Positions 24,929 to 44,607 of a stretch of 64,000 nt of DNA are shown one piece after another. Numbering within the stretch: the stretch's first letter is position 1; every line of letters starts with the position of its first letter. A program made the position numbers and the translations under genes. A model generated the notes under the pieces. It had not been told where the DNA came from and ran no database searches. It worked only from the letters and a program-made list of their open reading frames with translations. The stretch is from Trypanosoma brucei (Eukaryota): assembly GCA_000002445.1 (NCBI GenBank), contig CP000069.1:448001-512000 (forward strand). Direction: 5' to 3'.

Positions 24929-27631
24929 TTAAAGTGACTCTATAAAGAGCAGAACTTCTTGGCAATAATCAGGAACCTGATGTTTCGCCATCGCGTCCAT
25001 GACCAAATCTTTTGTCACAGAGGGCGCCAAAATAGCAGTTTCCTTGAGCACACCCACAAGGATGGGCTTCAGTCCCACAGTCTCGTCATGATCATCTAGG
25101 TGTATCAACAGCTTCTTGAGTAATGGAGTGGCCTGTGATAATATCTCGTCTATAACAATCGGGCAGACTTCATTCTTATTTTCTAAAATGGCTAACAATC
25201 CCGACGCAGCTTTTGCACGTATCATGTCATTGGAATCATCGAACCGCAGGATAATTGACTGCAATATGTCGCTAGCGGACCCCGCATTAATCGGTAAATA
25301 AGAAAGGTTCGGTACATTGACCATGCACATCAGCCTCATTTCGGGGTCATCCGCATCCGATGCATTGCACCAGTTGGTCACAACCTTTGAAGAGAGAGCA
25401 AAGGCATTGTCACACAACGAAGGCTCCAGCAATTTGCGGTGCCACTCCTGCAGCAGAGCACACTGGGAGCTTACGGCAACCTTTCGAAACAGATGTGCCT
25501 GACCACCAGGACGGAAGGCCCCTAGAGGTAAAATAACGACTCGAAGCACCTCCTCCAACTGACGCCCTGAAAACACTGGCACTTTCCGCCAGAGAAGTTC
25601 CTCCAGCATACGCATATACTGCAAACAGTCAGTGACGCGTTGTGTGAAGTCAATGTCACTTAGTTTCAGTAAAAATATATTAGACAGCTGCTCGCCGTAC
25701 ATACCGATATTGCTCGAACTCAGCACAAGGTCGGAGAACGCACTAACAGGCATTCGAGTTCCGTAGCGGGATAAAATTCTTTTAAAGTGTAAGTCATAAA
25801 TAGCTCCCGGCTGCCCCGTAACGACAGTGGATAGGTGCGCAGTGCATTTCGAGACACGTTCCTGCACGGAAGGAAAACTGGAAGATCGTAGGCAAAGGAA
25901 AGCATACAGCAACACTGAGTCAAGCGTCCGTTGATTTACATCGTCGCGAACTTCCTGGGGTAGTGGGTTATCTGGTGTGGCGACAAAATCACGCTCCCCC
26001 AGAACCTTTATAACCACATCGAGAGTATCCAAGAGAGAACACAGTAGAGCTTCAGAATCGCTTTCCAATACGTCACTTTTCGTCATTGCACTTACGATAT
26101 GTGTGGCATTCGTCGCTGACAGCAGCGATTTCGAACCTTCTATAAGATACCGAAATGCAACCAAAATGCTGCACTTAACCGACGCAGCAGCGGTCGAAAA
26201 AAGCGTGGGGGAGTTGGTTGCCTCACCGTTTGCTGATGAAATGACAACAGTCTTCGAGCGTGACTGAATGACAGTAGGCTGTGATGCCTCAGATTCTTTC
26301 GGTGCTTCCTTCGAAGTCAAAAACGGTAAATACTGATCCGGTGTGAGGAACTTCCCCAAAATTTCCAAGCAGATAAGAGATTCTTGGACAACGTCCTGAC
26401 TGTCCCTTAGAGACTTGTACAACACACCCAAAATTTGCTCCACGAACTGTACGACAGATTTCTCAGTGTGGTAAATAGACATCCACAATATGCGTAACGC
26501 AACAACGCGTCTGTTGTTGGAAGAAAATGGAACGACCCAATCTATCGCGCAGACATCTGCAAAAACAGTCTCTATAAAACCACGTAACGACTCAGCAACC
26601 ACATAACGGGCGCCCAAAGATGGTCGGCGTCGAAGAACAGGATAAAGACTTGTATCAACTGTAGTTAGTGACATGTCAGGATACTCCTCATCTCCATACC
26701 ATTCAATATCCTTCATGGTAACCCTTCTCTTCGTTATATCGATGGTGTTGTCTTCGTTATCGAGAAGGTACTGTTTTCCCATATTTTCTAGTACCTGGAG
26801 TGCTTTCTCTGAGACAGCAGGAAAGTGATCAGTCACAAGAAGTAACAGATGGGGAAGTAGCCTTCGGTGCTGATCTTGACGTTCCTGTATGTCCAAAAGC
26901 GACATGGAAAGAAGGTCTACGAGGGCCGACCGCACAACCTCAGCATGATCATTCGCCAAAACAAACAATGTGTACGCAGTTGTCCGGTTTGCGGGTTCAT
27001 CCTTGCCGTCGGCAAGGATCTCCACGGCTCCTCGTTGTATGAGTGACGCCAGTGTCCGCGCAGCCTCTGCCCGAACCACACTGTGTTTGTGTAGTAGACA
27101 GTTTTTTACGACTTTTGCCAAGGGAAGGGACACGTGCTTCACTTGTACAGGCTCAATTTCGCAGAGCCGTACACAGGCGCGACAAGCCTCCTTCTTTAGA
27201 TCAGGGTAGGCGTCTCGCAGACAATTTTCAAGCAGTACCTGCAAAAAATCGATATAGTTCCGAGGCCCGATTTCATGGGGGAAAGTTTCCATGCAAAGCA
27301 CCGCAAGCCTCAATAATAGAAGTCGCAGTTCCTCACTTTCCTCCGCAACGGGCGAAACACCTATTCGCGTTACCACTGCCGGCAAAACCCAGTCGAGGAC
27401 AGACGGCGGCTGCCTCACAAGAATAGACGATACAATTTGAATGGCGTACTCACGACACCTCTCAGCACTGTCCTCAAACCCCCGAAGGCAACTACGGAGC
27501 AAATCGAACTCTTTTCCTTCTGTTAGCTTGCCGTCTGAACACAGATCAAGGAGTTTGGTGTACGCCTGCAACCGCTTTGGCCGAGCAACATCGGAAAGTT
27601 CATTCAAATGCTTGGGGAAGAGATCCATCAA
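24929..27631 (-). CDS. Large HEAT/ARM-repeat protein (900 aa), possibly a DNAAF5/HEATR2-like assembly factor
   Basis: Long Leu-rich helical-repeat ORF with regular ~40-aa periodicity of LL..A/V..L motifs. The family assignment is speculative. Confidence 0.75.
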   Translation of the reverse strand: MMDLFPKHLNELSDVARPKRLQAYTKLLDLCSDGKLTEGKEFDLLRSCLRGFEDSAERCREYAIQIVSSILVRQPPSVLDWVLPAVVTRIGVSPVAEESEELRLLLLRLAVLCMETFPHEIGPRNYIDFLQVLLENCLRDAYPDLKKEACRACVRLCEIEPVQVKHVSLPLAKVVKNCLLHKHSVVRAEAARTLASLIQRGAVEILADGKDEPANRTTAYTLFVLANDHAEVVRSALVDLLSMSLLDIQERQDQHRRLLPHLLLLVTDHFPAVSEKALQVLENMGKQYLLDNEDNTIDITKRRVTMKDIEWYGDEEYPDMSLTTVDTSLYPVLRRRPSLGARYVVAESLRGFIETVFADVCAIDWVVPFSSNNRRVVALRILWMSIYHTEKSVVQFVEQILGVLYKSLRDSQDVVQESLICLEILGKFLTPDQYLPFLTSKEAPKESEASQPTVIQSRSKTVVISSANGEATNSPTLFSTAAASVKCSILVAFRYLIEGSKSLLSATNATHIVSAMTKSDVLESDSEALLCSLLDTLDVVIKVLGERDFVATPDNPLPQEVRDDVNQRTLDSVLLYAFLCLRSSSFPSVQERVSKCTAHLSTVVTGQPGAIYDLHFKRILSRYGTRMPVSAFSDLVLSSSNIGMYGEQLSNIFLLKLSDIDFTQRVTDCLQYMRMLEELLWRKVPVFSGRQLEEVLRVVILPLGAFRPGGQAHLFRKVAVSSQCALLQEWHRKLLEPSLCDNAFALSSKVVTNWCNASDADDPEMRLMCMVNVPNLSYLPINAGSASDILQSIILRFDDSNDMIRAKAASGLLAILENKNEVCPIVIDEILSQATPLLKKLLIHLDDHDETVGLKPILVGVLKETAILAPSVTKDLVMDAMAKHQVPDYCQEVLLFIESL

Positions 27632-30600
27632 GTACCAAACAAGGGCTATATCAACACTATGAACGTTGGAAAACTGATGTGAGTAATAAAATTATAGAGG
27701 AAAGCAGTGTAGATATAAACAAATTGTCCGTGGTTAACAATCAGTGGTCGCTCCTACTTCCCTCATAATAGGCTAACAAAGTGAACCTTCGTTTTTTTTC
27801 AACACGCAATAGTAAAGTTATGGCGAGCGCCCGAAGGTGGACCAAGTACCTACGGCGATAGTTACGTCATATCAGAAATATGAATACGTTTGACATAGTT
27901 TCAAATTGCAACGGGAACCGTCCTGGTGTTTTCTGCACTGTACAGCAGGGCCTGAGGTTGTCAAGCCCCACACGCCAAAGATTATCTACCATCAACGTTT
28001 GCTTCTTTCGTGGTAGAAACGCGGCAGACCATCAACACGTTGACTCCACATCCCCCCCCAAAAAAAAAACCGTATGGCTACCATTTAATGTGTAGCACCG
28101 CAGAGCAGGGCATCTCAGAGCGACAAACACATTAAATGGTAACCATACTTGATACTGTAAAGTAATACAACACCCCTATCTGTTGTCTTTCCGCGATTCA
28201 CCAGTAAATGCTCACTTAGAAAGGTATATAGTTTCACGTGAACGTAGAATGATTAAGCGAATAAAAATCAGATTAACAACAACGAATAAGCGTTTTACCT
28301 CACGGTGTGCAACAATATTTTCTGCTGTATGACGGTCATCTACCTTCGACGATGCCTCTGCAAACATACGGAACAAGCCACAAGATCCAGGCTATCACGG
28401 CGTGCATCACCAAAGGGACCGATCAACCACCCTGAAGGAGAGAATTAATGCCCCAGTGATGTGTAAGAAAAATCTCATTCGAGATATGTTTATTTCGCCT
28501 TGTCGCTGAATAGTTGCCTTGTCCTCCGTGTCTGAAACACAAGCACAATAATCAGCTTGGTTTCCTCTTCCGAGAGTGAGCCTAACTTTGTAGCTGTGCA
28601 TGCACTTCCAACAAGCATCTTCCAATTTACAAATGCTATGGGTTGCCACACTTAGTTGTACGTCAATTCCTTGCCTCACATTATGATCATCCTAAAAGGC
28701 GCGAAATTTTCGTGTCTTATATGTGCCACCCCAGTTGTAGTCGCCCTTTATGTGCCTTATGTTGTCATGCATATCGAAAACAGGCAAGATACATTTAAAA
28801 AAACGATACCGATTATCCTCAATGGTATTTATTAAGCAAGGGCTGATTTCTTTCACGAATAGAGAACGAACAAAGTGAGGAGCCTGCGTTCTTCATCGCT
28901 AAAGTGTGCGTAAAACACGACCCCACCATTTTTCAAACGATCGTCGAACCGAAACTTGAAAAGCAACTGAGAATAAACCGCGGTTCCGCTGAGAGGTACC
29001 TAATGATGCTTCCATTTCATTTTATACAGTGCTCTCCAACCAGGCAGAAATAACTCTGTGAACAGTAAAACGTCGACGATATTTATCGATAGATACGTCA
29101 ATGTAGGAACAGTTTCCACACGGATCCTATATTATGTGCTGCCTCGTCAATGGCAGACAAAAAATACAACGGTTACACTTTCTACAGCAAACTAAAGCAC
29201 CTACCAAAATAATTTCTGTCCATGCGGCGCGGCCACTCGGATCCTAAGCCCCCCCTCAAGCACAAAAAACTGCAATCACAGCCACATTCCATGCCGCCAG
29301 TTGGTGTGCACACGCCACTCACAACGGCAACAGACACCGTGGTAAACGCGCCGAAGTACTTTGTGCTGTTTTTTTTTTCCAAATTCTCCAGAACAAGAAA
29401 GACCTCACCAAGAAGGAACAGATAGAGGCGGACCACGCCCATCCAAAATTTCAACGTACGCTACGGCCATCACGAACGAGTTCACAGATGACGCAAGAAT
29501 ACCAATGCAGCCACAAACACAGGCGCGCGGCTGCAAATGAAAGACTCTCCGTCTCAACCTCCCGAGCCCTCAGAAACTGAACAACACTCAGTTGGCAGCG
29601 GTTACCGGTTGTCGGAAAAGTCTTCGTCACACAGGGGCAACGTATCAGCAAATACGAAGTTGTCCCGATTCCGTCGGGAAACCATAGCCTTACCGGCTGC
29701 AGTCTCCGGCCACATGTCAGAATTGACCCACGCAAGCCGCGTCAACAACGTACCAGAAGCGAGCGGACAGCAGTGCAGGAAGGTAGGCATGGATGACCTC
29801 AAGTGGAGAGCACAAGGGGAAGCGTCCCCTTCCAATTCTCTCCAGAGAAAAGGTAGTGAAAAGGATTTGGGAACCGCTGCTGGTTCTCTTTTTTTCTTTC
29901 TCTTGATTCCCTCTGAGCCGCTGTGGCACGCTGAACGAAAATTTCACCACATGGGGCGAACGGGCCGCGCAGGCAGAACGTAATACAAACGAGAAAGGGT
30001 CATACCACCTCGACCCGCCAACGCCAGGCAGTCATGCGGCGATGCAACGAAAGAAACATGAATACCTCGGAGCAGGACAGCGGCTTTTGCCACGTCCCCG
30101 GCAAACTATCGTTAGGGTAACCCGTTTCCAGGGGAGGGGGCTTATCATTAAGGGGTCGGGCAGTATCACCGACAGCAGATTCCCTAATTTTTAATTATTG
30201 GGGATAAACAACCCGGTGCCCCGGGTCGAATCATAAACCCTCTTCATCTCGGCGTTTCACACCCCTTTATGCGTGGGAACAGATCCACTCCTTCCCCCAC
30301 ACACAAATTTTTTGAAAGTGTCTAAGAGTGCACACCATTTCCCTTATTTTTTATTTTGTTCTGGGATTCCCATTTCTACACATCGGAAACTATGACCTTC
30401 GGCCCCCAATCTTTTCTTACTTCCCTTTTGGAGAATTGTGCCTCTCCCTCCCCGTCGACACCCAATCGGCGTTACCAGACAACATTGACGGGTCGGGGCC
30501 ACCTCAGCAGGAAGCTCTCCGACTCCAAGGAGATGCCTGGTGAAGCGGTGAAGAACCTTACGAACAAGTGGACAACATTTTCCCTGAGTCGTGTGACCCA

Positions 30601-33600
30601 ACCCTGCCGGAGCGGGGCCACTGCCCTTCAGTGACAGCGTGAGGTCACAGCACCGATATCGAAGCAAGTAAAGAAGCCTGATGACCTAAGGGCACGTCGT
30701 TCAACAAAATTTAAACCGGGTGCGTGCAATATGCAGTATCAGGTTTTTTTCTTTTTTGCGTCGCATGTCGTGTGTACGGCCAGCCCACTTGCAGCAGTAT
30801 GCCCACAGAAGCACACGCGCAAACTGAAAAAGCAACAGCCGGTTTTAGCAGACAGCATCCAGCAAAGATTAGCTAAGTATTTTATTTACGCCCTTTAAAG
30901 AAGAAAACAGGCGTTCTAAGACTCGGGGTCATCAAAGGCCAAAAGTACACTTTCCCGGCTGCGAATGCCTTCTTTCAGACGTCGGATGCCCCTGGCCGCT
31001 TCATGCGTGGTAAAAAGCTTCCGCGCGTACTCACGGCCAAGTACAAGAAAAGGAAAAGAAACCGATTACGTGGTCGTTCTACAAAACTTATAGTCGGGAA
31101 CATCAACGGCAGGCAATGGCAACCACTGATGGGGCCGGTGAGGGAATCGGCAGTTGAACCGTGACTATTGTTTTCTCACGTACTCACACTTCCTCTTTCG
31201 TAGAATAACGGTACCGAAGTGTCATAAGATATGCTTGAACACACTCCATCGACTACTCTCAAGGAAGAAATCGTGTGGAGATGTGATCCTAAAGGCAAAT
31301 AACGGCAAACCGGGTGCTGTAACAGCTGTACAGCCGGAGAAATCAAAGCGAACCGACGTTGAGCCAAAAAAAAATTTGAAGCAGCATGGCCGAGAGGATC
31401 AACACATGCCGACGACGACTCTTATTCCAAAAAGAAGCTCCCTCTTTACTGCAGTTACGGATTGCCAACTTCGGTGGAGGCACCATTGCAACGGGTCAAA
31501 ACTGATTGGGAGACCAACGAACACTTGGTTGGGACTTCATCCTGAAGTTGTTGCACAGTTTCCCGCTGCAACCACTTGATTATCGCAGCAAGAAACTATG
31601 CTGTACGGAATGGCGGATCCGGAGCGGCGCGACATACATGCCTTCGCCATCGGCTATCACTGATATGCGGGAACAACCCGACGTGGCACTCTGACGGCAA
31701 TGATTCCGAGGACGCACAAATGGCGGTATGCTCCAACACAGCGGGGTAATTGAGGGCCCTTTTCCACCGACGACCCCAGGCTCTGATATGGGAGTCAAAT
31801 GTGAGGTCATGGTGAAACACTTGAAGTGTGCTTTTCCTTTTCACTGTTTGAAGATATTCACAGTCACCGGGAAAGACAGCAGAGAAATCTTTTTTCATTT
31901 TTTTTTTTTAGAATTTTCTTCGTGCCTTCGTGAGAGTTTCCCCCCACTGGCGCGGCCATCAGCCATCACCGTAGAGCCCTGAGATGCTATCGGTCTGGCG
32001 ACTGTGGCAGAGTCTCCCTTTTTCATTCATCCTAACACACCCTCTATAATTTTTGTTGTATTTCCGCATATGAACGGAATACAGCAGATGGGGCGAGAAG
32101 CCTCCCACCCTGGACTCTCCCAAAGATGCCAATTGGCAATCCTTTTTTGGAGGTCCACATCACCGGACAGCAGCATCTTAGCGCGGATGATACTGCTGAT
32201 GGCACGCTGGCACGTGCCCAGGGACCGACAAATGAAAAACGGTGTCCCAGCAAGACGCTGCTGATCCCTGTGCTGTATGATGCCGTAGCCGGAGCACAGC
32301 AGTGTTCCCCATGAAAGGAACTCTGCTGGCTCTTGGCTTCCCCCGATGATACGGGGTACTGGACCCTGGCACCACGTTGAGGTGGCCGACATCGCCAGGG
32401 AATCTTTTTTCAGACATCCTACCCGAAAGCACCTTCGCGCATCGCTACTTCTACTCAAAGGGCCGTAATATCTGGTGGCCGAGGTGACTTTCAACATCAC
32501 TGTTTCCACGCGCATAAGGGGGGGGGGAAGAAACGAGACGAAGCAGGGTGTTTCACGGATTGATTTCACTGTGTTCGGCATTTCATGCAGACAGTGTCGA
32601 CTCGGGACCCACTACTGCTTATGGGCAGTCTCCCCCGAATGGGAAGGTGGTTCCTCTCGCAAAATGTTGAGGTAGCATGAAGTAGATGGAGGCAGGAGTG
32701 CGTTAGTTGCCAACGGGTGTCCGCGGGGGATGGAGTCGCTTCCCCATCGGTACCGGTTGTTGTGGCGGTGTCTTCCATGGCTTTGGACTTTCCTGTTCTT
32801 TTTGGGAAGTGTTAGCATGAAGTGTGGCACCGGCACGGGCGGTTACAGGGCGAGGGTGCCGAGAAACATGCTTTTGGTTGGCCAGTTGATTATTCCAAAG
32901 ATGGTCGTTAGAGGTGTCCCGTGGATAGTCACGATGGATGTTTAATGACTGCGGACTGCGCTAAACAGGGACCCAGTAGGTCACAGCGAATAGGCGGAGT
33001 AAAAGATATGGGTTATAGTGAATGGGATCCCTAAACTGCTGGTCAATTTACCCTTCAATGATACTGTGGCTGCTGCGGGCATTCGTAAATAGGTTTACCA
33101 ACGAGTATTCAAGGGATCGCGTAGCACAGTGGAAACGATGCTAAAACCACCGCCGTAAAGTGGCGCGGAAACGCTCGTGTTCCGGAAAACTCGAGAGGTA
33201 GCGGTCCCCCTCATTAAGGCGCAACGGTCGTCGGTATCAGTTGCGTTGTACAAAACCAATAGATATTGGTTTGTGTGTGTATATTCTAATGCTGGAAGAA
33301 AATTTGTTCAACTGTAAACGCTTCGGCTCGCTGGGGTGCACTGAGGAGATAGGAATGTATATATTTAATTGCTTTCGATGATGAAGGAGCGTTCAACGAC
33401 GCGCAAATCGTGCACTTGTCAGTCAGTGGGATCCGTTTTGTTGTTTGTTGTCACTCCCCATGATCCGAGCTTCGTGAGCATGACACCGCCATGAAACTAA
33501 GGATGGATGAGGCGAATGTCAGCTGTATGTCAACGAAAATCGTGTTTCCACTACAGCAGTTCGGTGGTTACAAGGTTTTCAAACCTTAGGGTCTAGCATA

Positions 33601-36319
33601 CGTGTATATAAATGTGACCGTCTAGCGGTCGCTACGACGTTTAAATGTGATGTCTGCGATGAGGTATGTGTTACCAGAAGAAGTACTCAGAGGTAGCGGA
33701 GTCAGCGCAATTTAAATCAAGTTTCTAACGGCGTGTATAGCCGGAAGTTAATGAAACCGACTCCACCCATGCCATACCCGACCCATGCAGACATTAATGC
33801 TGCAGAGAGAAAGGGAGTAATCACATCATACTCTTCATGAGTGGGTGGAGGGGCTCAAAATTGTTGTGAAATTGCAGAAACGGTGAAATAGTTTGACGGA
33901 GAAAAATACCTAGTTTTAATTACTCACGCGTAACTCAAAAATTGCTGACGCCGCCGAATATTTTTACTTGGCTTAACTTGTCGACAGATGACGATACGCG
34001 TACATAAGGGAACAACATTTTAGTGATTGGAAAATTGCATTTCCGTACTGCTGTGGTGTAGAACCAGCATTGGCGTCAACAAAATTAACAAAAGTTCTGC
34101 TTGCACTACCCTGACTTGGCTATTTCAGTTGTGAAAAGTTGATGGAGACAATTAAAGAGTTTCCGGAGAGGAGAACTGTTGCAGATCATGTTTTCTTCTA
34201 GTTAACACACTGACTGTGTTGCCTTATGGCAATTACACTGGGTGAAGGGCAGTTCGTGTGTGCATTGGAGATCTTTCGGTTAGTTTATTACTAAATCTTT
34301 TTGACAGTTTGGTGCTCCCCGTAACCGACATGTTTGCTTTAGAGCATGTTTACTCTGGATCATGTCCATGTAAATTACCTGTTAAAGGCTATGTTATTGT
34401 TTAAGTAAGGCCCTCTATTTGCATTCTATGCAACACTTCATTTGCGATGCGGGCGCACTTTCGCTACTGTTTGTCGTTCCGCCTATCCTGAATTTTAAAT
34501 GCTAGCGCTCGGTGTCCAAGCGTTTTTAGCGTGGCATTCAGAGCATCTACCGCTGTCGTTTTCAACAAGATGAGGTAAATTTTCTGCCGACCGTCGCATG
34601 GATCCTTTACACAATGATTCTGTGGTTGCCTCATCTATGTTTAAACTTTGCGAATGTGTTTATGCTTGGCGTCCTGTTGTATTCATTCCACTTTTCATGC
34701 TTTCCTATGAGAAAAAAAATACACAAATTTCGTTGCCTTTTAGTCTGCACAGCGTTGACGGTGAAGTGGTGACTGTGGTGCTGGTTGTTTAGCATTTACA
34801 TAGTTCTATCCTGTTGTGCAATCACCGGAGCAGTTACTGCACAACGTTTTGTTTGTGTGTTCGCGAGTTTTTTTTAATTACTTGGGAAGAGTTGGATAAA
34901 TAACCTTTTTTCATCCGTAAAGTGAACGAAATGACAAATGCCGATGGTGTAGCAAAGAAGCACCGTTTCACTCTCCGTTTACATTTACCAACTTCTGACA
35001 ATATCTGATTGTACATCTTTTATTGGAATGCTAAAAATATAAGAGGTGTGAAGCCCGTGAACCCATATGAAAGCGCTGAGAAGTTATCGGAATCATCATG
35101 TAGAATATGTTGGGGGACTCCCCCCTTTTCAGTTTTGCTGATGCACCTAACTAATAATCACATTTAAGTAGGGTGGTACATTTCACACGGCGTATAATAC
35201 ACCTGGTAAATTAACTTGCTTACCTAGTGTTGGCTGTAGCATTTCCAGGGGAAAGTGGGTTGGACGTGACATCTTCGCTTACAGGACTTGAAAAAGCTGC
35301 ATCTTTGAGTAACTGTTTGTCGGTAATCAATTTTTTTATTATTAAAAAGGACCTTAGTGGTCACTGCTGTTTTCATACCCCAGGGATGTATTTTTTGATT
35401 GCATAAACTCACCTTGTGGGGCCAAGTCTACTGAAAAGGAATGATACATCTTGGGAAGTGCATGTATGCGGTCTCATGGGTCAGGAGAGTGAGTAAGGTG
35501 AACTGCTGAAATTCATGTCGTTTATGTTGGGGCTTCCGCCAACAGCATGCTGCCAAGACGCACCAGTAATGTTCCACACTGTGCGGAAACATCCCCCCTC
35601 CCCGTACATACCGCCAGGGCATGGCAATACTTTCTTCTGGAATGTGCATTACTTTTGATCAACAGGAAATGCTTAACCACCGCTTGAGGATTAAATTGTT
35701 GCCACTGACTGTTTCGAACGTGAGGTTATCTCGATGTGTTTTTGAGTATTTTTTTTTTTTTTGCGGAATGTTTTCCCCACCCCTCTCATTTTATGCTTGA
35801 TTCTTACCACGTGGCGCGGATTCTGTCTGAATTTGACGCAACTCGTTCAGGGTTAATGGGAGGAAGTGGTGTTGGAAACATTGACCTATTATTGAAGGGA
35901 TAATGATATGACATGGAGGTACAGGAGGTACCGGTGGCGCTGCCTCAAATGAGGCCTAATCCGTAAAACCAGGCAATTGTTAACCCAAGCGATGGTTCAT
36001 TTCCCCAATGAACCTTCGCTACCTTAATATATATGGGTTCTGCGGTTTTCGTTTTGATGTCGCAGTTTTTTGGAGCGGGCTTTTGGGTGTTTCATAACAG
36101 AGCCGAGTCATACTCAATAGTTGCTGTAGTGTCAATGTTTATTTATGTGGGCTTCTTTGTGTTCCTTTGCTTTTTCTGTGCTTGTTGCGTGTTGTATGTG
36201 GAATGCTTTATTATTTTTTTTCCTGTGTGTGTGTGTATTTATGGGGTTTCTGTTGATGTGGGGTAAGTTGTACTTCTGAGGGCTACAGGAAGTAAGACAT
36301 AGAAATACGGAAAATAGCA
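27632..36319. promoter_or_regulatory. Divergent strand-switch region, ORF-poor (~8.7 kb), between the minus-strand gene run and the plus-strand gene. Putative RNA Pol II transcription start region with GT-rich tracts at 33.2-36.3 kb
   Basis: No ORF above ~190 aa on either strand. Flanking genes diverge. GT-rich runs on the top strand (e.g. 36150-36260, 33250-33300, 34840-34870) as reported for trypanosome transcription start regions. Confidence 0.45.
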
Positions 36320-37252
36320 ATGGCGACATTCACTTGCGGAGTGACGCTACTGCTTTTTTCTTTCCATTTCTTGGCAATTCAGTCAGAGGCAATTCCGCAC
36401 ATATGTGTTAATGCAGCTAATTATAGCCATACCCAGTTTGAAGAGTGTCTTACTCACATGTGTGACCTAAGCGAGGAGTTAAGTGCTTTTAAACGTACCG
36501 CGGTTTCCCTTAAGCGGCAAGCTACGGGAGACGCCGAAACTTCGAAATTGGCGCTGCAGTATATGGAAGAGGCACTTGAAAAGGTCCTCCACGTGACGCA
36601 GGGTGTGAAGGAAGGTAACAAAACGATCGGAACGGCCGCTGCAGTCAAGAAGTCCGTGATTGAGGCAAAAATTGCGTCAGACATAGCGGATGAAGAAGCT
36701 TCCAAAGTGGAGAGGAAATTAGATAAGGCTACGAGGGACGCAGGAAATGCAGAGAAAAACCTTCAGCGCATATTGATATACACCGCTAGAAAAGCTTGTT
36801 CGTCTGAGGGTATATCCTCTCAAGATGAGGAAGTAAAGGAGGCTCAGTGCAACGTAAGTACGGAGATCGTCTACAGCTGCACCCGCAGGCCGTTAAAGAT
36901 AAAGTCTGATACGTTACGTAAGACGTATGAAAGGCTTAAAAGTTTCACTCGGACGCCGAACAAGACAATAAACGAGCATTTACCGAAATGCCATATGTGG
37001 ACGGAATTACTCGAGCCGGCAGTGGCGAGCCTGACTGATATGGAAAAATCGGCGTCTGTTGCTCGTGCGTATAGAAACCAGGTAATCAAAGCGAGAGGGG
37101 AAGCGCAGCAAGCGGCATGGACAGTCGGCGTTACTGTTCAGGATGTGGATGGTTTGGATGAAGTGTCGGAGGAGGACGACTTTGCCCTTGCACCCGTGGT
37201 GCTCGTCGCGGTGCTTATTGTTGGCGCTGTGTTAATTGACCAGCACCCATAG
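36320..37252 (+). CDS. Predicted secreted or membrane-anchored protein (310 aa) with an N-terminal signal peptide and a C-terminal hydrophobic segment. The only plus-strand gene in the window
   Basis: Signal peptide MATFTCGVTLLLFSFHFLAIQSEA; helical A/K/E-rich ectodomain with N-glyc sequons; C-terminal LAPVVLVAVLIVGAVLIDQHP. The only long plus-strand ORF; no conflicting minus ORF. Confidence 0.6.
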   Translation: MATFTCGVTLLLFSFHFLAIQSEAIPHICVNAANYSHTQFEECLTHMCDLSEELSAFKRTAVSLKRQATGDAETSKLALQYMEEALEKVLHVTQGVKEGNKTIGTAAAVKKSVIEAKIASDIADEEASKVERKLDKATRDAGNAEKNLQRILIYTARKACSSEGISSQDEEVKEAQCNVSTEIVYSCTRRPLKIKSDTLRKTYERLKSFTRTPNKTINEHLPKCHMWTELLEPAVASLTDMEKSASVARAYRNQVIKARGEAQQAAWTVGVTVQDVDGLDEVSEEDDFALAPVVLVAVLIVGAVLIDQHP

Positions 37253-38545
37253 TAAAAAATGCAAACAACGATATTATATGTAAAGATATGCTGCTTGTAG
37301 GAGCAGTTGAGCCAATAGGTATAGACTTGCGATCTTTGCTTCTGTCCTTTCACCTTCTTCCGGCGGATGTGGCACGGTAATTTGTTAACGTGAATAATCC
37401 CGCTAGTAGTGTTTTACGTGACCCCATATAGTTTATTTTTGAATGCTTTAATTAGATAATTTCTTTTTTTTTTTTCAGGGAATCGACTTTGCGTGTCTAA
37501 CTCACGTTCATGGTCATCTGACCTTCCTTGGTTTGGCCGAATTCCATTACTGGACGACGTGATCACCCCACCATTTGGATAAGAGTGTGCATCTCTACCT
37601 TTTCCCTTCCGTGTCGTTTACATTTCCTCTTCATGTTGTTCGTCAGGGCCTCTACTGATGGTTGGAAATAGGGGCAACATGATCGGGCTGCGGCGTAAGG
37701 GAGAGCAAAGAAGCAAGGGAGAGTGCAAACCTTACATTGCCACGGCATATTTTTCTGTACTCGTCCCCGAGTTGTATTTGTATTGTAGAGTGTTGAGATA
37801 TCCTCGGCAGGGGAGACCGGCGGTTGCGGCTCCAGTTTCCCATAAAAACAGCGTAAAAGAAAAAGAGGTGATTGGGACCCATTTCATTGTGATGAGCACA
37901 TCAAACTTTGACGTTTCAGTGGTGGACCGCTGTTGAACCAGTTTGGGGGCAACATTTTGCCTGAGGTTGTCCAAACATGAACGGGCAAAGAATGGCTTCA
38001 CAAGCTCAAGGTTCCTAGTTGTGCCACTTTAACGCCCTGCTTCCTGATTTGAATGTTGTTATGAACCACACGCGGGGTGTTATGCATGGGAGCTCTGACC
38101 ACGAGGTGACAGGGCCGAGCTGCGTGTTCTCGCCGAGGTGCCGCATCCACGGGTGTCAACACACGAAACTAACGTTTGAACAACGGAAAGACGGAGTAGA
38201 CGCTGTAAATGCGGTGAGCACATCAAACAAATACGCTCCCGTTGTGGGACTTATTCCAGCAGTAGGAATAAGCACCAGGATAAAGGTACAATGAAAAGTA
38301 TGGATGATGGGACTCTCCTGGTATCAATGTTGGGTCCAAAGACCATCCAATGCCCAACCAAACACACTGAACAACTTGCACTCACGAAACACGCGCGGCA
38401 ACAAGGACGGACACTAGGAAAGCGACGCAACAATATGAAGATAGAGCGCGAGATTTTTTTTAGTGGATTTACCGCTTTGCTCATTCGTCAAGGTCCTTGG
38501 AGAATAGTGTGAGGTGGAAGGCCTCGTGCAGACATGATTGCCACT
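37253..38545. terminator. Convergent strand-switch region (putative Pol II termination zone) between the plus-strand gene and the array-containing minus-strand gene run
   Basis: Gene orientation converges here. No long ORFs. Confidence 0.35.
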
Positions 38546-39112
38546 TCACAGAAACATGGAAAAATTCATTTGAGAGGTGTTTGTTCTAAAGGATGTAGAA
38601 TCGGAGGCGCTGTCTCCCTTTCCCTTGCCGTGCAGATACCCAAACAACAAGGGGTGAAAGTTCCCGTCGACCGAAGCCACGACACTCAAGATGGCACACC
38701 AAAAGATGGCGAGATGCTGTTTCTGGGAGTGCAAATGGGCATGTCGAACCGCTGCGCCCAGTGCCAAAATAAAACAATCGACTAGGGTTAAAGCGGCGGC
38801 AAATGGAAAATGTAACGCACCGGGCCGTAGGTCACTAACCAACTGAAGTAAAGGCTCGAAGGGGATCCTGCCGCGCCGCGAACTGTCAAAAAAACGGAGA
38901 CCAAAAACATTCCACAAACAGCAGAATCCCGGAAACCTCAATACTATCAGCACGAAGTACCTCGCACTCTCCATATTAAGTCGTGCCCATACCAACCGAG
39001 CCCCAAAGACAACAGCATCGCAGCCGCTACACAAGTTTCCATTTTCAATCTTCCTCCTTCCTCTGACAAATGCGGTCGCCAACGAGACACGTAGCGCCAC
39101 GTTCCACATCAT
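38546..39112 (-). CDS. Hydrophobic hypothetical protein (188 aa) directly abutting the left edge of the tandem array
   Basis: Co-oriented ORF with several hydrophobic segments. Its start codon lies within ~20 nt of the array boundary sequence (catcatctcatagcttcctaatttgcac versus repeat ctcacataatctcataatttcctagtttgcac). No family recognised. Confidence 0.35.
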   Translation of the reverse strand: MMWNVALRVSLATAFVRGRRKIENGNLCSGCDAVVFGARLVWARLNMESARYFVLIVLRFPGFCCLWNVFGLRFFDSSRRGRIPFEPLLQLVSDLRPGALHFPFAAALTLVDCFILALGAAVRHAHLHSQKQHLAIFWCAILSVVASVDGNFHPLLFGYLHGKGKGDSASDSTSFRTNTSQMNFSMFL

Positions 39113-39652
39113 CTCATAGCTTCCTAATTTGCACTATACAAAAGGACAAAAAAAAGAGGAAAGATATTCACACAACAAAGCGCACTCAGTACCCATCCTC
39201 CCTCTAATGTTAGTTTCCCAACCAATATACTGCACATCATATGCGCAGTAAACGTGAGCTAATATATATGGATATCTGGTGACCGCAACTGGCGGTTGCA
39301 ACAATAGCCAATACGGTGCACATAAATTTTATGAGTTCTTACGAACAAAGTTATTCCATCAACAATATGAAACACAAGATGATATATAAACACACAAGAC
39401 AAACAAACCCCATCTCTGCCAAATGCACTTTTACATTTCTGCGGGTGAGCCATTATTGGAGTCCCGTGGCAGTAAACACTATTACAAACATTATTCGGGA
39501 AAGCTTTGAAATAAGATATATAAAATAAGGAAATCAGTAACACAACACATTTGAATGCTTACATTAGTTTATAGAATATTGATGCGTATGATAGCGTTGC
39601 GGCAAACAGTTTACATTGCAATATGCTTTTGAATCGTTCCTTATTATGATAG

Positions 39653-40708
39653 TCAGATAAAACAGAGGGATACTGATAGTAACGTAATTTTGAGTGAGGG
39701 AAATGATGCAATATTCTGTTTTTGTGTTTGTGTGGGTTGAGCATCGGAATCCTTTCGTGCTGCAGTTTGGGGTGCTGTTCTCGAGGGTTGCGCGCCTTCA
39801 GCTCCAGCTCCAGATTCCTTTAATGCTTTTACTTCCTCTTCATTTTTCGCTTTACCGTAAGTTCCCTTTAACTTTTTAACTTTCTCTCTCAACTTTTGAA
39901 GAGCTGCATCTCTTTTATTCATGTGACCCATCGCCTGATTCAACTGCTCAACCCACGGCTTTGAAGCAAGTGGATCAGGTTCCTCCTCAACTCTTGGCGG
40001 TGGGGGAACGCCGTGTGGTGGGAACGGAGGTTGTGGTGGTGCTGGTGGCGGCTGTGGAGATCCGTTGTTTTGGCCATCTGAATACCAATTTCGCAAATCC
40101 TCCAAGTCCTGTTTTATAGCCTTAACAGTAACCTCAACGCTACCAGATCCTACTGTACACCTACCTTTAAGTTCCTTCCATAACTGCAGACGGTCTTCCG
40201 GTGTTTGATGCTCCCTCTGATTTTGAGCAGTTCCCGCAACAAAGCAGCTTTCAGTGGCTCCACTTGCAGAGCTGCAAAGGCATACAATTTCTTTCGGTAT
40301 TGTTGTTGAACGGCTTGTTTCATTGCAGGGTTGGTTTTCCCCACGGGATCCAAAAGTTTTGTCCGCATTCTCGGTTTCGATGTCATCCCCATACGCTGCT
40401 TTCCGAAACGCTGTCCTGGCGCTATTTTCATGACTCTGCACTTCGTCTTCTAACTCTTTAACTTTATCCACCTCTGTTTTCAAAGCCGCTGAATCCCTGG
40501 CACCTTTATTAAACCACTGATAATTACTATCATCTTTTAACTTATCAATGTAATTTTCTTTCGCTCCCTTTTCCGCCTTCGTGAAGAGTCCACACAAAAG
40601 ATCAAATCCCTTCCCGTGCTTCCTGTAGTCTATCACGTTATCGTCTCCAGCCGTTACCAACGTTACCGACACTCCCACAACGACCACTTGTACAATTGCT
40701 TGCCACAT
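39653..40708 (-). CDS. Array unit 1: predicted GPI-anchored surface protein (351 aa)
   Basis: N-terminal signal peptide (MWQAIVQVVVVGVSVTLVTAG), a Cys-containing central domain, a proline-rich hinge (PQPPPAPPQPPFPPHGVPPPP), and a C-terminal tail identical to the other copies ending in the hydrophobic SLKITLLSVSLCFI. Confidence 0.8.
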   Translation of the reverse strand: MWQAIVQVVVVGVSVTLVTAGDDNVIDYRKHGKGFDLLCGLFTKAEKGAKENYIDKLKDDSNYQWFNKGARDSAALKTEVDKVKELEDEVQSHENSARTAFRKAAYGDDIETENADKTFGSRGENQPCNETSRSTTIPKEIVCLCSSASGATESCFVAGTAQNQREHQTPEDRLQLWKELKGRCTVGSGSVEVTVKAIKQDLEDLRNWYSDGQNNGSPQPPPAPPQPPFPPHGVPPPPRVEEEPDPLASKPWVEQLNQAMGHMNKRDAALQKLREKVKKLKGTYGKAKNEEEVKALKESGAGAEGAQPSRTAPQTAARKDSDAQPTQTQKQNIASFPSLKITLLSVSLCFI

Positions 40709-42368
40709 TCCTGTGATTCTTCATTATGCACGACAAAGCAAGAAACAAAAAACAGAATTCACATTAAACACAACAGTAATATCAAATAAATGTTGTCTAT
40801 CATGACATGCGCATGTATTATCCCACAGAGCAGTTATTGACTTTCAACCATCGGCGCAAAATGATATATCTTCAAAGGCAGAGCAAACAAACTAACATAA
40901 CATCCAACAGGCCATCTCAACAAGCTCACTATACACGAGGATAGTAAATTCGTCAAATCACTTTACAGATGCCATCGTCGTGATTTCCATTAAACTTTCT
41001 GAATTCCATGTCCCTCTCTCTCTCTCTGAAAGGAATTTGCTTAAAGCATAACATCTAATTCCCCAAAAATGAGTTACACATCCCACATCAAGTCTTTCAC
41101 CCGCCTTACCCTGGTGTATTTCAATCACTCAACTTCTGACAATTCCTATATTCATATTCTTTTCGTTACACTTCCTTAAAATCCTTCCAGACAACCAAGC
41201 ACATCACATTGTTTTATCTTTACATCACTATTAAATGAACAGCAAAAAAAAAATGTACACATCTCCAACACACATGCCGAGTAAACTTCTTGACACCTGA
41301 GGCCGCTCCCACTCCAATCTCGATGGCCTTAACATCAATAACACTCTTGACTAACACTAATATTATTGTGTGATAAAAGAATTGGAAGGATACATTCCCT
41401 AACATGATACCGAAAATTACTGAAACACAAATGTGTAAAGAGTCTAGGAATGGATATACAAAAGGTGGTGTTTAGTAAGAGAAGGGCAATTAACTGCCAC
41501 CCGGAGTGTCTATTTCGTTTAACCTCATCCCGTATATTGTCAACAATACAAAGTCTTATAAAACACACCACCAGTTGTTCTCCAATAAATATACGTTATA
41601 CATGCCAATATCACAAACACTGCAACATCCTCTTTCTTCAACACTTCAAATACGTAACTCATATATCACTTGCTAAAGGTCTTAGTACCATATCCATGCC
41701 TCACTGAAGGGTTTGTGCCGTAACCCAATTAAATGTTGCTTCCTCTCCTCCTTCCATTTCCTCACAATAGGATACGCAGAGCTGCAACTTTGTAATATGT
41801 GCGCAGTTGATGGGGACTTCAGCCGTTATCACTTTAAATTGCAAATGGAAATTCTGAAACAATTCCAATACTCCCTCATGAATACCAACTGTTGCGTGTG
41901 TGTCTCCCATATACCGGCAGTTGCCATTACTGCAATGTTATGCTCAATGAGGATCTTTTTAATATCAAGTGTTAACGGCAACTATTTTATTGTTCATGTC
42001 AGGCTCATATTCATGTAAGTGAAATGGGTGAAACTGTTCTTTTCCTTACTTTGCATTATATAAATAAGAGGAAATAAGGGATGCTTGTTAGAGGCACGCA
42101 ACAGACACATACACATATGAGAGTTTCCATCCAACAATACATACATACCCTTTAAATAGTCCACCAACTGGAGGATGACACCAGCATGTCAGTGAGGGAA
42201 GCAGTATGTCTAGGAATAACATAAAAGACACGCGTGAAGGAATTTACATATTTGTTGCCTTGCTTTGCCTGCTGCGAATACCATATCACCTCCATCAGTA
42301 AAGTTACGGAATTCGGTAAACTTCCATGAATGCACATAAGCAACTGATACACACACACTTTTCCCTTC

Positions 42369-43034
42369 CTATTCCTCTCCTGCACAACTCACATGTTCAC
42401 TTGACGCACTGTCATCCGCTGCAGCAAGTAACTGTTGTCTTCCAGGTGGTTTCTCTCCAGTCAATGCACCACAGAAGCTTACAGTTACTGGCAAAACGGG
42501 TCTGCCCACATCATCAAGAGGAACTGCCTCAAGTTTCTCTAGCAGTGAGAGATCATCAATGGCACGTCCAAACACAACTTGCTTGAAATCAAGAGATGGA
42601 GAAGGACCAAGTGTAATGCCAAATACGGAGCCACTTGTGTGAGGACCCTCAGAGATCATTGTGAGGAGCCCACGTTCCGTGTGTCGGTGACGGTATCCTT
42701 CATCCGCTATTGGTGTGCCAGTGGAGGAGAGGTTAAAGGAATCCAATTCACCCAACACAATGATATTATTGTTGTGATCCACATGATGCACTTGTGTGCC
42801 AAGGTAATCCAATTTCACACCCGTGTTGGTGTCAATCCCACATGACCCAGTGATTAATGCCCTGAAGTTTTCTACGGTTTGTGGCACTACATCGTCAAAG
42901 AGCTCAAATACCAGTCGTCCGCTGAGAACGTCATCAATAGACATATCCAGGAAGGCACGGCAGGAGTTCTGTTCCTCCTTCATGCGATGACTCCGCTGGT
43001 AATTTTCCCATTCCTTTAAGCGGTGCTGTCTCAC
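42369..43034 (-). CDS. Array unit 1: divergent cyclophilin-like protein (PPIase-fold, probably non-catalytic)
   Basis: Matches the cyclophilin core: VFELFDDVVPQTVENFRALITG versus CypA [23 protein letters not shown], and TMISEGPHTSGSVFGITLG versus SMANAGPNTNGSQFFICTA. The functional start is probably the internal Met at 42983 (MKEEQNSC..). Confidence 0.8.
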   Translation of the reverse strand: MRQHRLKEWENYQRSHRMKEEQNSCRAFLDMSIDDVLSGRLVFELFDDVVPQTVENFRALITGSCGIDTNTGVKLDYLGTQVHHVDHNNNIIVLGELDSFNLSSTGTPIADEGYRHRHTERGLLTMISEGPHTSGSVFGITLGPSPSLDFKQVVFGRAIDDLSLLEKLEAVPLDDVGRPVLPVTVSFCGALTGEKPPGRQQLLAAADDSASSEHVSCAGEE

Positions 43035-43581
43035 ATAATCTCATAATTTCCTAGTTTGCACTTTACAAAAGGACAAAAAAAAAAGTAAATATATTGACAC
43101 AACGAAGCACACTCCGTACCCATCCTCCCTCTATTGTTAGTTTCCCAACCAATATACTGCACATTATATGCACAGTAAACGTAAGCTAAAATATATAGAT
43201 ATCTGGTAACCGCAACTGGCGGTTGTAACACTAGTCAATACGGTGCACATAAATTTTATACGAGTTCTTACGAACAAAGTTATTCCATCAACAATATGAA
43301 ACACAAAATGATATATAAACACACAAGACAAACAAACCCCATCTCTGCCAAATGCACTTTTACATTTCTACGGGTGAGCCATTATTGGAGTCCCGTGGCA
43401 GTAAACACTATTACAAACATTATTGGGGGAAGCTTTGGAATAGGATATATAAGACAAGGAAATCAGTAACACAACACATTTGAATGCTTACATTAATTTA
43501 TAGAATATTGATGCGTATGATAACGTTGCGGCAAACAGTTTACATTGCAATATGCTTTTGAATCGTATTTCATTATGATAG

Positions 43582-44607
43582 TCAGATAAAACAGAGGGAT
43601 ACTGACAGTAACGTAATTTTGAGTGAGGGGGATGATGCAATATTCTGTTTTTGTGTTTGTGTGGGTTGAGCATCGGAATCCTTTCGTGCTGCAGTTTGGG
43701 GTGCTGTTCTCGAGGGTTGCGCACCTTCAGCTCCAGCTCCAGATTCCTTTAATGCCTTTACTTCCTCTTCATTTTTCGCTTTACCGTAAGTTCCCCTCAA
43801 CTTTTCGACTTGCTCTCTCAACTTTTGAAGAGCCTCATCTCTTCCCTTCATGTGGTCTGTTGCCTCATTCAAGTTCTTAACCCACGGCTTAGAAGTAAAT
43901 ATATCAGGCTCCTCCTCAGGCATTGGTGGACCGCCGGGCGGCGGGGGTGGTGGACCGTCATGTATTGGTTTTTCAGGATACAATCCTCGCAAACCCTCCA
44001 AGTCCTTTCTTATGGCATCAACAGTAACCTCAACTCTATTGATACCCTTTGTACATTTTCCCTTAAGTTCAACCCATGCCTGAAGACCGTCTTCGGCGTT
44101 TCCGTTCTGGCCATACTCTCGGGCTTTCCCGCTCCCAAGGCAGTAGTCGGTGGCCTCACCAACAGAGCTGCAAGTGCAGACAATTTCTTTTGGTAATGCT
44201 GGCCACTCGCTAGCTGGGTTACAGGGCTGGTTGCCCCCATGGGACCCAAACGTTTTGTCCGCATCCTCTTTTTCAATGTTTTCCCCATACGCTGCTTTTT
44301 GAAACGATGACCTGGCGCCATTTTCATGACTCTTTACTTCGTCTTCTAACTCTTTAACTTTATCCACCTCCGCTTTTAAAGCTGGTGAATCCCTGGCATC
44401 TTTATTAAACCACTGATAATCTTCGGTTTCTTTTAACTTATCGAGGTGACTTTTTTCTTTCGCTCCCTTTTCTGCCTTCGTGAAGAGTGAGCACAAGAGA
44501 TCAAATCCCTTTTTGTTTTTTTCATGGTCAACTGCGTTATCGTCTTGAGCTGTTATCCGCGTTACCAACACTCCCACCATGACCACTTTCATAATTACTC
44601 TCCACAT
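43582..44607 (-). CDS. Array unit 2: predicted GPI-anchored surface protein (341 aa)
   Basis: Same architecture and invariant C-terminus. The central domain and a shorter Pro hinge (GPPPPPPGGPPMPEEEP) differ from the other copies. Confidence 0.8.
   Translation of the reverse strand: MWRVIMKVVMVGVLVTRITAQDDNAVDHEKNKKGFDLLCSLFTKAEKGAKEKSHLDKLKETEDYQWFNKDARDSPALKAEVDKVKELEDEVKSHENGARSSFQKAAYGENIEKEDADKTFGSHGGNQPCNPASEWPALPKEIVCTCSSVGEATDYCLGSGKAREYGQNGNAEDGLQAWVELKGKCTKGINRVEVTVDAIRKDLEGLRGLYPEKPIHDGPPPPPPGGPPMPEEEPDIFTSKPWVKNLNEATDHMKGRDEALQKLREQVEKLRGTYGKAKNEEEVKALKESGAGAEGAQPSRTAPQTAARKDSDAQPTQTQKQNIASSPSLKITLLSVSLCFI

Follow-up and report, generated by a model that had tools for sequence, protein, structure and literature searches.

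Positions 27.6-39.7 kb of the window, that is, of the whole 64,000-nucleotide stretch of Trypanosoma brucei DNA analyzed here, form with a probability of about 0.8 two neighboring strand-switch regions around a one-gene Pol II unit, with a divergent region where transcription starts and a convergent region where it stops. The window corresponds to chromosome 6 of strain TREU927 (Tb927_06_v4, 448,001-512,000), and a window position plus 448000 gives the chromosome coordinate, the offset being derived from the tables of Kolev 2010. Such a pair of strand switches is of an ordinary, previously catalogued kind, and both the one-gene unit and the position of the tandem gene array beside it are already published. 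The features considered are as follows.

24929-27631, minus strand: Tb927.6.1290, a DNAAF5-like HEAT-repeat protein (Pfam TPR_DNAAF5/HEAT_DAAF5), which opens the unit Tb927.6.1290 to Tb927.6.820.
27632-36319: divergent strand-switch region, from GC skew and G+T profiles, gene orientation, and the label "Divergent" in Kolev 2010, Table S14.
27800-29055, minus strand: Tb6.NT.36, a trans-spliced and polyadenylated "novel transcript" (Kolev 2010, Table S7, 477055-475800).
31886-32412, minus strand: RIME non-LTR retroposon with its target-site duplication; the element runs from 32400 down to 31898 (503 bp including an A12 tail).
36152-36267, plus strand: pyrimidine-rich runs, (TG)6 at 36224-36235, and the first downstream AG at 36266, from sequence inspection; likely trans-splicing signal.
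36320-37252, plus strand: Tb06.3A7.960, the sole ORF of its unit (310 aa; signal peptide, predicted three-helix bundle, C-terminal hydrophobic tail).
37253-39652: convergent strand-switch region, from gene orientation, a G+T flip at about 38 kb, and the location of Tb427.06.1300 within 10 kb of H3.V and base J.
37460-37478, plus strand: polypyrimidine tract (TTTCT12C) followed by AG, about 210 nt past the stop codon; candidate processing signal.
38546-39112, minus strand: Tb927.6.1300, a 188-aa hypothetical ORF (exact match to XP_845252), nominally the last of the right-hand unit and doubtful as a protein gene.
39259-58692, minus strand: tandem array of five units of about 3.9 kb, Tb927.6.1310-1390, from a repeat search and Pfam.
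39653-40708, 43582-44607, 47467-48504, 51317-52360, and 55203-56246, minus strand: Fam1 VSG-like ORFs.
42369-43034, 46252-46866, 50098-50763, 53988-54653, and 57874-58692, minus strand: cyclophilin ORFs.

In the intervals 1-27631 and 38546-64000, all ORFs of at least 150 aa that have a Pfam domain or a published Tb927 identifier are encoded on the minus strand; the plus strand has a few long ORFs there, which overlap minus-strand genes. Between these intervals, 36320-37252 is the sole plus-strand ORF of at least 150 aa. The layout claimed in the original prediction, with minus-strand genes up to 27.6 kb, 8.7 kb without a recognizable protein gene, a single plus-strand gene, a convergent switch, and a further minus-strand run, is real. 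The prediction correctly placed the convergent switch but did not recognize the 8.7 kb gap as a second, divergent one. Its description of this gap as ORF-poor holds for protein genes, but the RIME retroposon and the published transcript Tb6.NT.36 lie inside. Stop-free segments of at least 40 aa from all six frames of 27632-36319 match no Pfam family even at E-values up to 1, which rules out a long frameshifted gene and, likewise, a DIRE (a degenerate ingi element of full length) whose reverse transcriptase could be recognized. Scans of the whole window for tRNA genes and Rfam families gave no matches, which sets these strand switches apart from those associated with tRNA or snRNA genes. Scans with bacterial models, which are inapplicable to T. 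brucei, found no more promoter-like sites than in shuffled controls, and 21 terminator-like sites against 13.7 (sd 3.7) in shuffled sequence, a marginal excess.

The published map classes the divergent region as a Pol II transcription start region common to both flanking units. Table S14 of Kolev 2010, which is headed "putative" and may rest partly on annotation, lists Tb927.6.1290-Tb927.6.820 on the minus strand, Tb06.3A7.960 alone on the plus strand, and Tb927.6.2150-Tb927.6.1300 on the minus strand, all labeled "Divergent"; in the same study, reads with 5'-triphosphates were enriched bidirectionally at every divergent unit and in one direction at a Pol I unit. The flanking genes head apart, with Tb927.6.1290 bounding the region at 27631 and Tb06.3A7.960 starting at 36320. 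In GC skew and G+T profiles, the sense-strand G+T bias is leftward up to about 31.5 kb and rightward from about 32.2 kb, and it flips back at about 38 kb. The plus-strand G+T fraction is 0.38-0.48 over 27-31.5 kb and 0.53-0.64 over 32.2-36.2 kb, and the peak of the right arm (0.636) exceeds the maximum of the sense strand in the minus-strand runs (0.622; mean 0.518, sd 0.042). A G+T-rich sense strand on each arm matches the Pol II start regions described by Wedel 2017. The start region is also old: the DNAAF5 orthologs of T. vivax, T. theileri, and T. cruzi likewise lead their runs, the sequence upstream being empty or coding on the opposite strand, and the position of the unit start is conserved across Trypanosoma.

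Within the gap, Pol II would initiate in both directions, leftward into the Tb927.6.1290-Tb927.6.820 unit and rightward into the unit that contains Tb06.3A7.960 only; we infer both the exact initiation zone and the type of polymerase. Sequence-specific Pol II promoters were reportedly described by Cordon-Obras in 2022. On the leftward arm, Tb6.NT.36 lies upstream of Tb927.6.1290 and is present in procyclic forms at 0.54 RNAs per cell (1255 nt; Kolev 2010, Table S7), and its 5' end at 29055 is directly preceded by an AG dinucleotide on the minus strand.

The RIME element coincides with the flip in strand bias. It is bounded by a 12-bp target-site duplication (TGAAAAAAGATT at 32412-32401 and 31897-31886), and a copy is also found in T. 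b. gambiense. Its 5' end, CCCTGGCGATGTCGG, resembles the Pr77 primer of T. cruzi, CCCTGGCTCAGCCGG, and Pr77-type 5' ends have promoter activity in T. cruzi elements; by analogy, this end could contribute to leftward initiation. RIME/ingi retroposons have accumulated in strand-switch regions, and the copy in this start region is a textbook one, with no differences. In T. theileri and T. cruzi, the element can be aligned to elements of the ingi/L1Tc type. A 184-aa ORF (32027-32581) seemed similar at the protein level to sequence from these two species, but this ORF overlaps RIME and its matches occur in several frames and on both strands; the similarity is retroposon conservation at the nucleotide level. 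As a separate observation, and possibly by coincidence, the DNAAF5 orthologs of T. theileri and T. cruzi also have elements related to RIME upstream, oriented as in T. brucei.

In Table S14, the plus-strand gene forms a unit by itself and has a start region of its own, as had been proposed from the gene order, and one-ORF units are recurrent there: they make up 16 of the 186 units counted in the accessible part of the table, Tb06.3A7.960 included (about 9%). The region upstream of the gene was described in the original prediction as GT-rich, and its 300 nt have a G+T fraction of 0.69, the highest gene-upstream value in the window, compared with 0.45-0.62 for 18 other genes. This richness is the sense bias of a Pol II start region, to which a polypyrimidine/(TG)6 tract of the usual trans-splicing kind adds. 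Judging from its sequence, 36152-36267, the core of the GT-rich region, is likely the trans-splicing signal of the gene, and the rightward transcript is probably trans-spliced at the AG just past this tract. The polypyrimidine-AG at 37460-37478 is a candidate processing signal that probably sets the poly(A) site, and thereby the 3' end, of the lone mRNA. Rightward transcription would then stop in the convergent region, at 37.3-39.6 kb, where it would meet the opposing unit that ends with the Fam1/cyclophilin array.

Facing genes converge on this region, the plus-strand gene ending at 37252 and minus-strand ORFs at 38546 and 39653, and genes converge likewise in T. congolense. The interval 37253-39652 is the probable termination zone of both the one-gene unit and the Tb927.6.2150-Tb927.6.1300 unit. 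Tb427.06.1300 is reported to be located within 10 kb of both base J and H3.V, and upon loss of the two marks its expression increases 2.4-fold, from 2.7 to 6.4 RPKM (Reynolds et al. 2016). The gene itself is frameshifted in T. b. gambiense, lacks a counterpart in T. congolense L005, and has no Pfam match; hence the last robust gene of the right-hand run is the Fam1 copy at 39653-40708.

The array that closes this run beside the termination zone, as both Table S14 and the response of Tb427.06.1300 support, consists of five copies spaced by 3.84-3.93 kb between about 39.26 and 58.7 kb, each with a VSG_B-domain ORF and a cyclophilin ORF. Tandem Repeats Finder missed it because the period of 3.9 kb exceeds the 500-nt limit of the program, and a separate repeat search recovered it. 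The Fam1 array has been located at a strand-switch region before (Jackson 2013). T. b. gambiense and T. evansi each have one copy instead of an array. In a probable history of the locus, T. brucei acquired a VSG-like Fam1 gene downstream of its cyclophilin gene, and strain TREU927 then amplified the pair five-fold.

The product of Tb06.3A7.960 begins with a hydrophobic N-terminus, MATFTCGVTLLLFSFHFLAIQSEA, for which SignalP gives D 0.8 and an HMM probability of 1 (Savage 2016). A hydrophobic C-terminal tail is present in all three homologs (T. brucei, T. congolense, and T. vivax); in T. brucei it is followed by DQHP, which is atypical for a GPI signal. The signal peptide and the hydrophobic C-terminus noted earlier are thus borne out. 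A single-sequence AlphaFold model was poor (pLDDT 54) and was superseded by a confident alignment-based model, in which the protein is an elongated three-helix bundle of the type seen in GARP, MISP, the factor H receptor, and HpHbR. This prediction suggests that Tb06.3A7.960 folds like the GARP/MISP/factor-H-receptor surface receptors of trypanosomes, and it agrees with the claim that the gene encodes a surface-type protein; from the signal peptide, fold, and hydrophobic tail we infer a location at the cell surface. A search of 1.84 billion representative sequences returned only the T. congolense and T. vivax homologs and a weak match (E = 2e-4) to an unrelated repeat protein. A profile built from the three homologs detected no further relatives; raising the E-value limit to 10 brought up none of the solved sequences of GARP, MISP, or FHR. 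Membership in Fam50 (BARP/GARP-like; Jackson 2013) was considered through the motif following C177, NVSTEIVYSC, and rejected, as there was neither a Pfam nor a profile match.

Six cysteines are invariant among the three homologs. Of the 13 substitutions relative to T. b. gambiense, 11 are at codon position 3 (p = 2e-4), and divergence is 2-6 times higher in the flanks; this substitution pattern indicates a real gene under purifying selection. The T. congolense homolog occupies the same convergent position, facing a cyclophilin gene and a 229-aa gene; the contig ends 2.4 kb upstream of it, and the upstream sequence is GT-rich (0.58-0.62). The one-gene arrangement would be older than the split between T. 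brucei and T. congolense. A 238-aa ORF upstream of the T. vivax homolog is unrelated to genes of the window and is probably spurious.

The mRNA of Tb06.3A7.960 is moderately abundant and reaches its highest level in salivary-gland stages, with reported values of 69 RPKM in the midgut, 77 in the proventriculus, and 195 in the salivary gland, a 2.6-2.8-fold rise within one data set. In cultured procyclic forms, the gene is among the ORFs without a detectable transcript (Kolev 2010, Table S2), so the plus arm may be weak or regulated rather than constitutive. One explanation is that initiation at the one-gene Pol II unit is switched by chromatin state, which would place developmental control at the level of transcription. 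Besides the contrast between cultured and fly-derived parasites, it is favored by the retention of the isolated arrangement in T. congolense and by published epigenetic, allele-specific silencing of Pol II initiation at another T. brucei unit. However, the two expression data sets differ in strains and methods, and the stage difference within a single data set is within the range of post-transcriptional control; we consider switched initiation unlikely. The wider proposal that Tb06.3A7.960 is a single-copy surface protein with a receptor fold, whose isolated Pol II unit has been kept since before the T. brucei/T. congolense split for chromatin switching in tsetse, is likewise rather unlikely.

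It is improbable that the transcript comes from a dedicated, stage-regulated Pol I promoter like those of procyclins or metacyclic VSGs, acting independently of the divergent Pol II start. The original prediction envisaged an autonomous promoter of this sort; its interpretation of a unit-end array, a one-gene unit, and a surface-type protein holds, but the promoter is not supported. As at procyclin loci, a one-gene unit for a surface-type protein adjoins the end of another unit, and the transcript that escapes detection in procyclic culture appears in fly-derived parasites with a maximum in the salivary glands. The published map, however, places this unit on the plus side of a conventional divergent Pol II start region whose other arm is the Tb927.6.1290 unit, and divergent units carry bidirectional 5'-triphosphate reads. 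Expression is also modest: in the same data set, midgut levels of the EP1-3 procyclins are 20,534-49,682 RPKM, which is 100-700 times higher. One-ORF units recur in the counted part of Table S14, and a Pfam search of the ORFs of the window and the gap segments found no procyclin-like or procyclin-associated-gene (PAG)-like gene.

Finally, it is highly improbable that there is no independent unit, with minus-strand transcription running through from 39 to 27 kb and the plus-strand ORF being a chance or decaying frame seen via antisense or read-through RNA, since the missing transcript in cultured procyclic forms and the annotation as merely hypothetical or "T. brucei spp.-specific" are outweighed by the homologs with their invariant cysteines, the codon-position bias relative to the flanks, the confident model that matches a specific trypanosome fold, the differential expression at 69-195 RPKM in fly stages, the conserved start of the DNAAF5 unit, and the double flip in strand composition.

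For genome organization, a one-gene Pol II unit between two strand switches brings little gain, as the array position and the unit are in the literature and such units account for about 9% of the 186 counted in the accessible table. The additions made here are that the arrangement is common to T. congolense and that the protein has a predicted surface-receptor fold. In the accessible portions of their supplements, Kieft 2020 and Jackson 2013 do not mention the locus, and the main texts, as far as available, do not name Tb06.3A7.960. The label "T. brucei spp.-specific" is wrong, given the T. congolense and T. vivax homologs. The predicted fold is shared with receptors of host ligands (factor H receptor, HpHbR, and ISG65) and with fly-stage coat proteins (MISP and GARP), and Tb06.3A7.960 is a reasonable candidate for surveys of transmission-stage surface proteins. 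Further, the one-gene unit is a convenient small system for asking whether Pol II initiation is ever regulated; if it were chromatin-switched, it would be a natural case of transcriptional control of a single gene in an organism believed to lack such control.

Four further known systems can be compared with this locus. Among the divergent one-ORF Pol II units of Kolev 2010, for instance Tb927.1.2040, Tb927.4.3750, and Tb927.7.4680, the unit in which Tb06.3A7.960 is both the first and the last ORF is structurally no different. In the list of unit-end genes repressed by J and H3.V (Reynolds et al. 2016), Tb427.06.1300 is up-regulated beside many VSG-related and ESAG genes, although its effect is small and confined to the double condition, and the Fam1 copies are absent from the list. 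The named three-helix-bundle proteins, MISP (5vtl), the factor H receptor (6xz6), GARP (2y44), HpHbR, and ISG65, share the predicted fold with Tb06.3A7.960, whereas sequence searches link the latter neither to these proteins nor to any Pfam family, and its family is represented by one gene per species rather than by tandem arrays. Finally, the procyclin (EP/GPEET-PAG) loci of chromosomes 6 and 10 are likewise short surface-protein units situated by Pol II unit ends or strand switches, according to PMC2731899, but they are transcribed by Pol I from focused, one-directional start sites and reach 20,000-50,000 RPKM in the midgut, whereas Tb06.3A7.960 is listed as a divergent Pol II unit and is expressed at 69-195 RPKM.

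Among ORFs of 150 aa or more, all those that carry a Pfam domain or have been published under a gene identifier lie on the minus strand, both in 1-27631 and from 38546 onward. Between 27631 and 38546, the ORF at 36320-37252 is the sole plus-strand ORF of this size, in agreement with the layout described in the original prediction. The product of this lone gene is identical to a T. equiperdum protein and 99% identical to the T. b. gambiense "T. brucei spp.-specific protein". The ORF has the length of Tb06.3A7.960 (933 nt), which is placed on the plus strand at Tb927_06_v4 484320-485252 (Kolev et al. 2010). Together with the end of Tb927.6.1280 at 471788 in the same source, equal to window 23788, these coordinates fix the window as Tb927_06_v4 448,001-512,000. 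The offset is independently supported by an AG acceptor at the expected base, directly before window 29055 on the minus strand, the 5' end of Tb6.NT.36 (477055). ORF 38546-39112 exactly matches Tb927.6.1300 of T. b. brucei TREU927, and ORF 39653-40708 is XP_845253.

Features of the divergent region (window coordinates)
27800-29055, minus strand: Tb6.NT.36, published spliced and polyadenylated transcript (Kolev 2010)
32400 down to 31898, minus strand: RIME retroposon, 503 bp, with a Pr77-type 5' end and an A12 tail

With a minus-strand run up to 27.6 kb and a plus-strand gene from 36.3 kb on, the gap between them (27632-36319) is itself a divergent strand switch, missed by the original prediction, which correctly named the convergent switch only. 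Four lines of evidence indicate that the gap is a genuine and old transcription start. GC skew and G+T content switch at about 31.5-32.2 kb and back again at about 38 kb, the sense strand being G+T-rich on either arm; sense-strand G+T-richness over a span of about 10 kb is described for Pol II start regions (Wedel et al. 2017). The orthologue of the DNAAF5-like gene (Pfam) Tb927.6.1290 heads its run in T. vivax, T. theileri, and T. cruzi, with eIF-2B alpha, PITH, proteasome subunit, and DAP3 genes in common downstream, and with only opposite-strand genes or empty sequence upstream. Every divergent unit is enriched in 5'-triphosphate reads, bidirectionally and unlike a Pol I unit (Kolev et al. 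2010). The gap is indeed ORF-poor, no long ORF being hidden there: when its stop-free segments of 40 aa or longer, from all six frames, were scanned against Pfam at E up to 1, no family matched. Tb6.NT.36, also negative in the Pfam scan, lies just upstream of the first minus-unit gene.

The RIME, which with its perfect 12-bp target-site duplication occupies 31886-32412, sits at the exact point where the strand bias flips and is oriented as the DNAAF5 unit. Strand-switch regions gather retroposons, and Pr77 has promoter activity. Upstream of the orthologous DNAAF5 gene, ingi/L1Tc-type 5' ends in the same orientation occur in T. theileri (L003:~830-1115) and T. cruzi, the latter having two copies, one of them inverted (L004:~9389-9540 and ~3172-3385). 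The entire window has three G or C runs of 8 nt or more. Two of them, G10 at 32518-32527 and C8A10 at 28052-28069 (plus strand), also fall in the divergent region, and in both cases the sense strand of the facing unit carries the G; the third (60922-60931) breaks the pattern, and significance is not claimed.

The lone gene probably forms the short arm of this conventional divergent Pol II start region. The original interpretation holds as to position, whereas its procyclin-like mechanism is unsupported. The GT-rich upstream region is confirmed, G+T in the 300 nt before the gene being 0.69, the top value among the window's 19 gene-upstream regions. With its pyrimidine runs and (TG)6 tract, followed by AG dinucleotides from 36266, this stretch looks like a trans-splicing signal. 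Tb06.3A7.960, for which a signal peptide is predicted, has RPKM values of 69 in midgut, 77 in proventriculus, and 195 in salivary gland, and is differentially expressed (salivary gland/proventriculus 2.55, p = 0.049) (Savage et al. 2016). In cultured procyclic forms it is among the ORFs without detectable transcript (Kolev 2010 Table S2). Chromatin-level switching of Pol II initiation at the lone unit, for which there is a published precedent at another T. brucei unit, is unlikely. A dedicated promoter would be very improbable, given that the Pol I-driven EP genes are expressed two to three orders of magnitude above the lone gene in the same data set, and that one-ORF units are recurrent (16 of 186, counted by eye in a part of Kolev 2010 Table S14).

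On the convergent side, the lone gene ends at 37252, and the final ORF of the opposing unit is nominally Tb927.6.1300. This ORF is frameshifted in T. b. gambiense (L001:12231-12795), where no gene is called; no counterpart was found in the T. congolense contig, and the ORF has no Pfam domain. By these sequence comparisons, Tb927.6.1300 is perhaps not a protein gene but non-coding sequence on the downstream side of Fam1, and the last gene of the unit is more safely the Fam1 copy Tb927.6.1310, with its stop at 39653. For Tb427.06.1300, H3.V and base J are both flagged as present within 10 kb, and its expression rises from 2.7 to 6.4 RPKM upon H3.V deletion plus inhibition of J synthesis (Reynolds et al. 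2016, S4 Table), which fits a marked termination zone.

The adjoining array has five units, each of one VSG_B-domain ORF (Fam1) and one cyclophilin ORF, spaced at 3.84-3.93 kb from ~39.26 to 58.7 kb. Its placement at the unit end beside a one-gene unit, rightly reasoned in the original prediction, is an organisation already in print. Fam1 is single copy in T. b. gambiense, and tagged Tb927.6.1310 localises to the flagellar pocket and endosomes (Jackson et al.); T. evansi lacks the duplication Tb927.6.1310-.1390 (Carnes et al. 2015). In the cyclophilin copy most distant from the strand switch (57874-58692), the open frame is longer and starts from TTG, giving 272 aa; the remaining four ORFs have 221 aa, and T. 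b. gambiense has one copy only, with an annotated length of 260 aa. The real start codon might not be that of the 221-aa ORFs.

In T. congolense, the homologue of the lone gene lies on the plus strand, convergent with a cyclophilin, a 229-aa gene, and a UPF0220-like gene, the same genes that lie beyond the array in T. brucei; its upstream sense strand is also G+T-rich (0.58-0.62). The isolated convergent position is thus older than the T. brucei/T. congolense split, and the Fam1 gene and Tb927.6.1300 are additions in T. brucei. The T. congolense cyclophilin ends its unit directly opposite the lone gene (L005:2377-5902, against window 36320-43034), which indicates that the T. brucei lineage acquired Fam1 by insertion on the downstream side of cyclophilin. 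The insertion came before the amplification of the Fam1/cyclophilin pair in TREU927.

When 1.84 billion representatives were searched exhaustively with phmmer, the lone protein had only three relatives with E under 1e-9, namely its orthologue in T. b. gambiense, one protein of T. congolense (34% identity, E 6e-45), and one of T. vivax (19%, E 3e-10). A further weak match (E 2e-4) is an unrelated repeat protein, and a profile search for relatives added none. The label "T. brucei spp.-specific" is thus wrong; judging by these searches, the gene belongs to a family that African trypanosomes have in single copy. Besides six cysteines, about 25 positions are invariant among the homologues. The coding sequence differs from that of T. 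b. gambiense at 13 positions, 11 of them third codon positions (binomial p = 2e-4), with only two amino-acid changes; the flanking non-coding DNA is 3-9% divergent. The locus looks unusually diverged between the two subspecies. Identity to T. b. gambiense (L001) is only 91-96% for the non-coding DNA to the left and right of the lone gene (33500-36000 and 37500-38500), 98.6% for the lone coding sequence, and 99-100% for the left-hand housekeeping genes, and falls to 74-79% in the divergent Fam1 copy (40-40.9 kb).

An AlphaFold2 model of the lone protein from a three-sequence alignment (pLDDT 73, pTM 0.69) was compared against solved structures.

Structural matches of the lone-protein model (score; rmsd)
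MISP, Tb427.07.360: 18.4; 2.1 Å over 200 residues
T. brucei factor H receptor: 18.2; 2.8 Å over 211 residues
T. congolense GARP: 17.3; 1.9 Å over 180 residues
HpHbR of T. congolense and T. brucei: 16.3 and 16.1; 2.4 and 2.7 Å
ISG65: 16.2; 3.5 Å
ISG75 (rank 9): 11.5; 3.4 Å
Top match outside trypanosomes, acyl-CoA dehydrogenase helical domain: 11.3

Foldseek is in agreement (E 1e-5 to 1e-4), and no sequence-level similarity to MISP/FHR/GARP-type proteins or to Pfam was found. The new points are small: the lone gene has homologues and synteny across species, it is under purifying selection, and a receptor-type fold is predicted for its product. Elsewhere in the genome, Tb927.6.440 is HpHbR and Tb927.5.4010 is a neighbour of the factor H receptor gene. 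Both are the final ORFs of their transcription units, as is Tb11.02.2370 (Kolev 2010 Table S14), a single-copy Fam50 locus (Jackson 2013). There are hints here that genes with this fold may favour unit ends. The lone protein is filed by its predicted fold, and not as part of the Fam50 sequence family.
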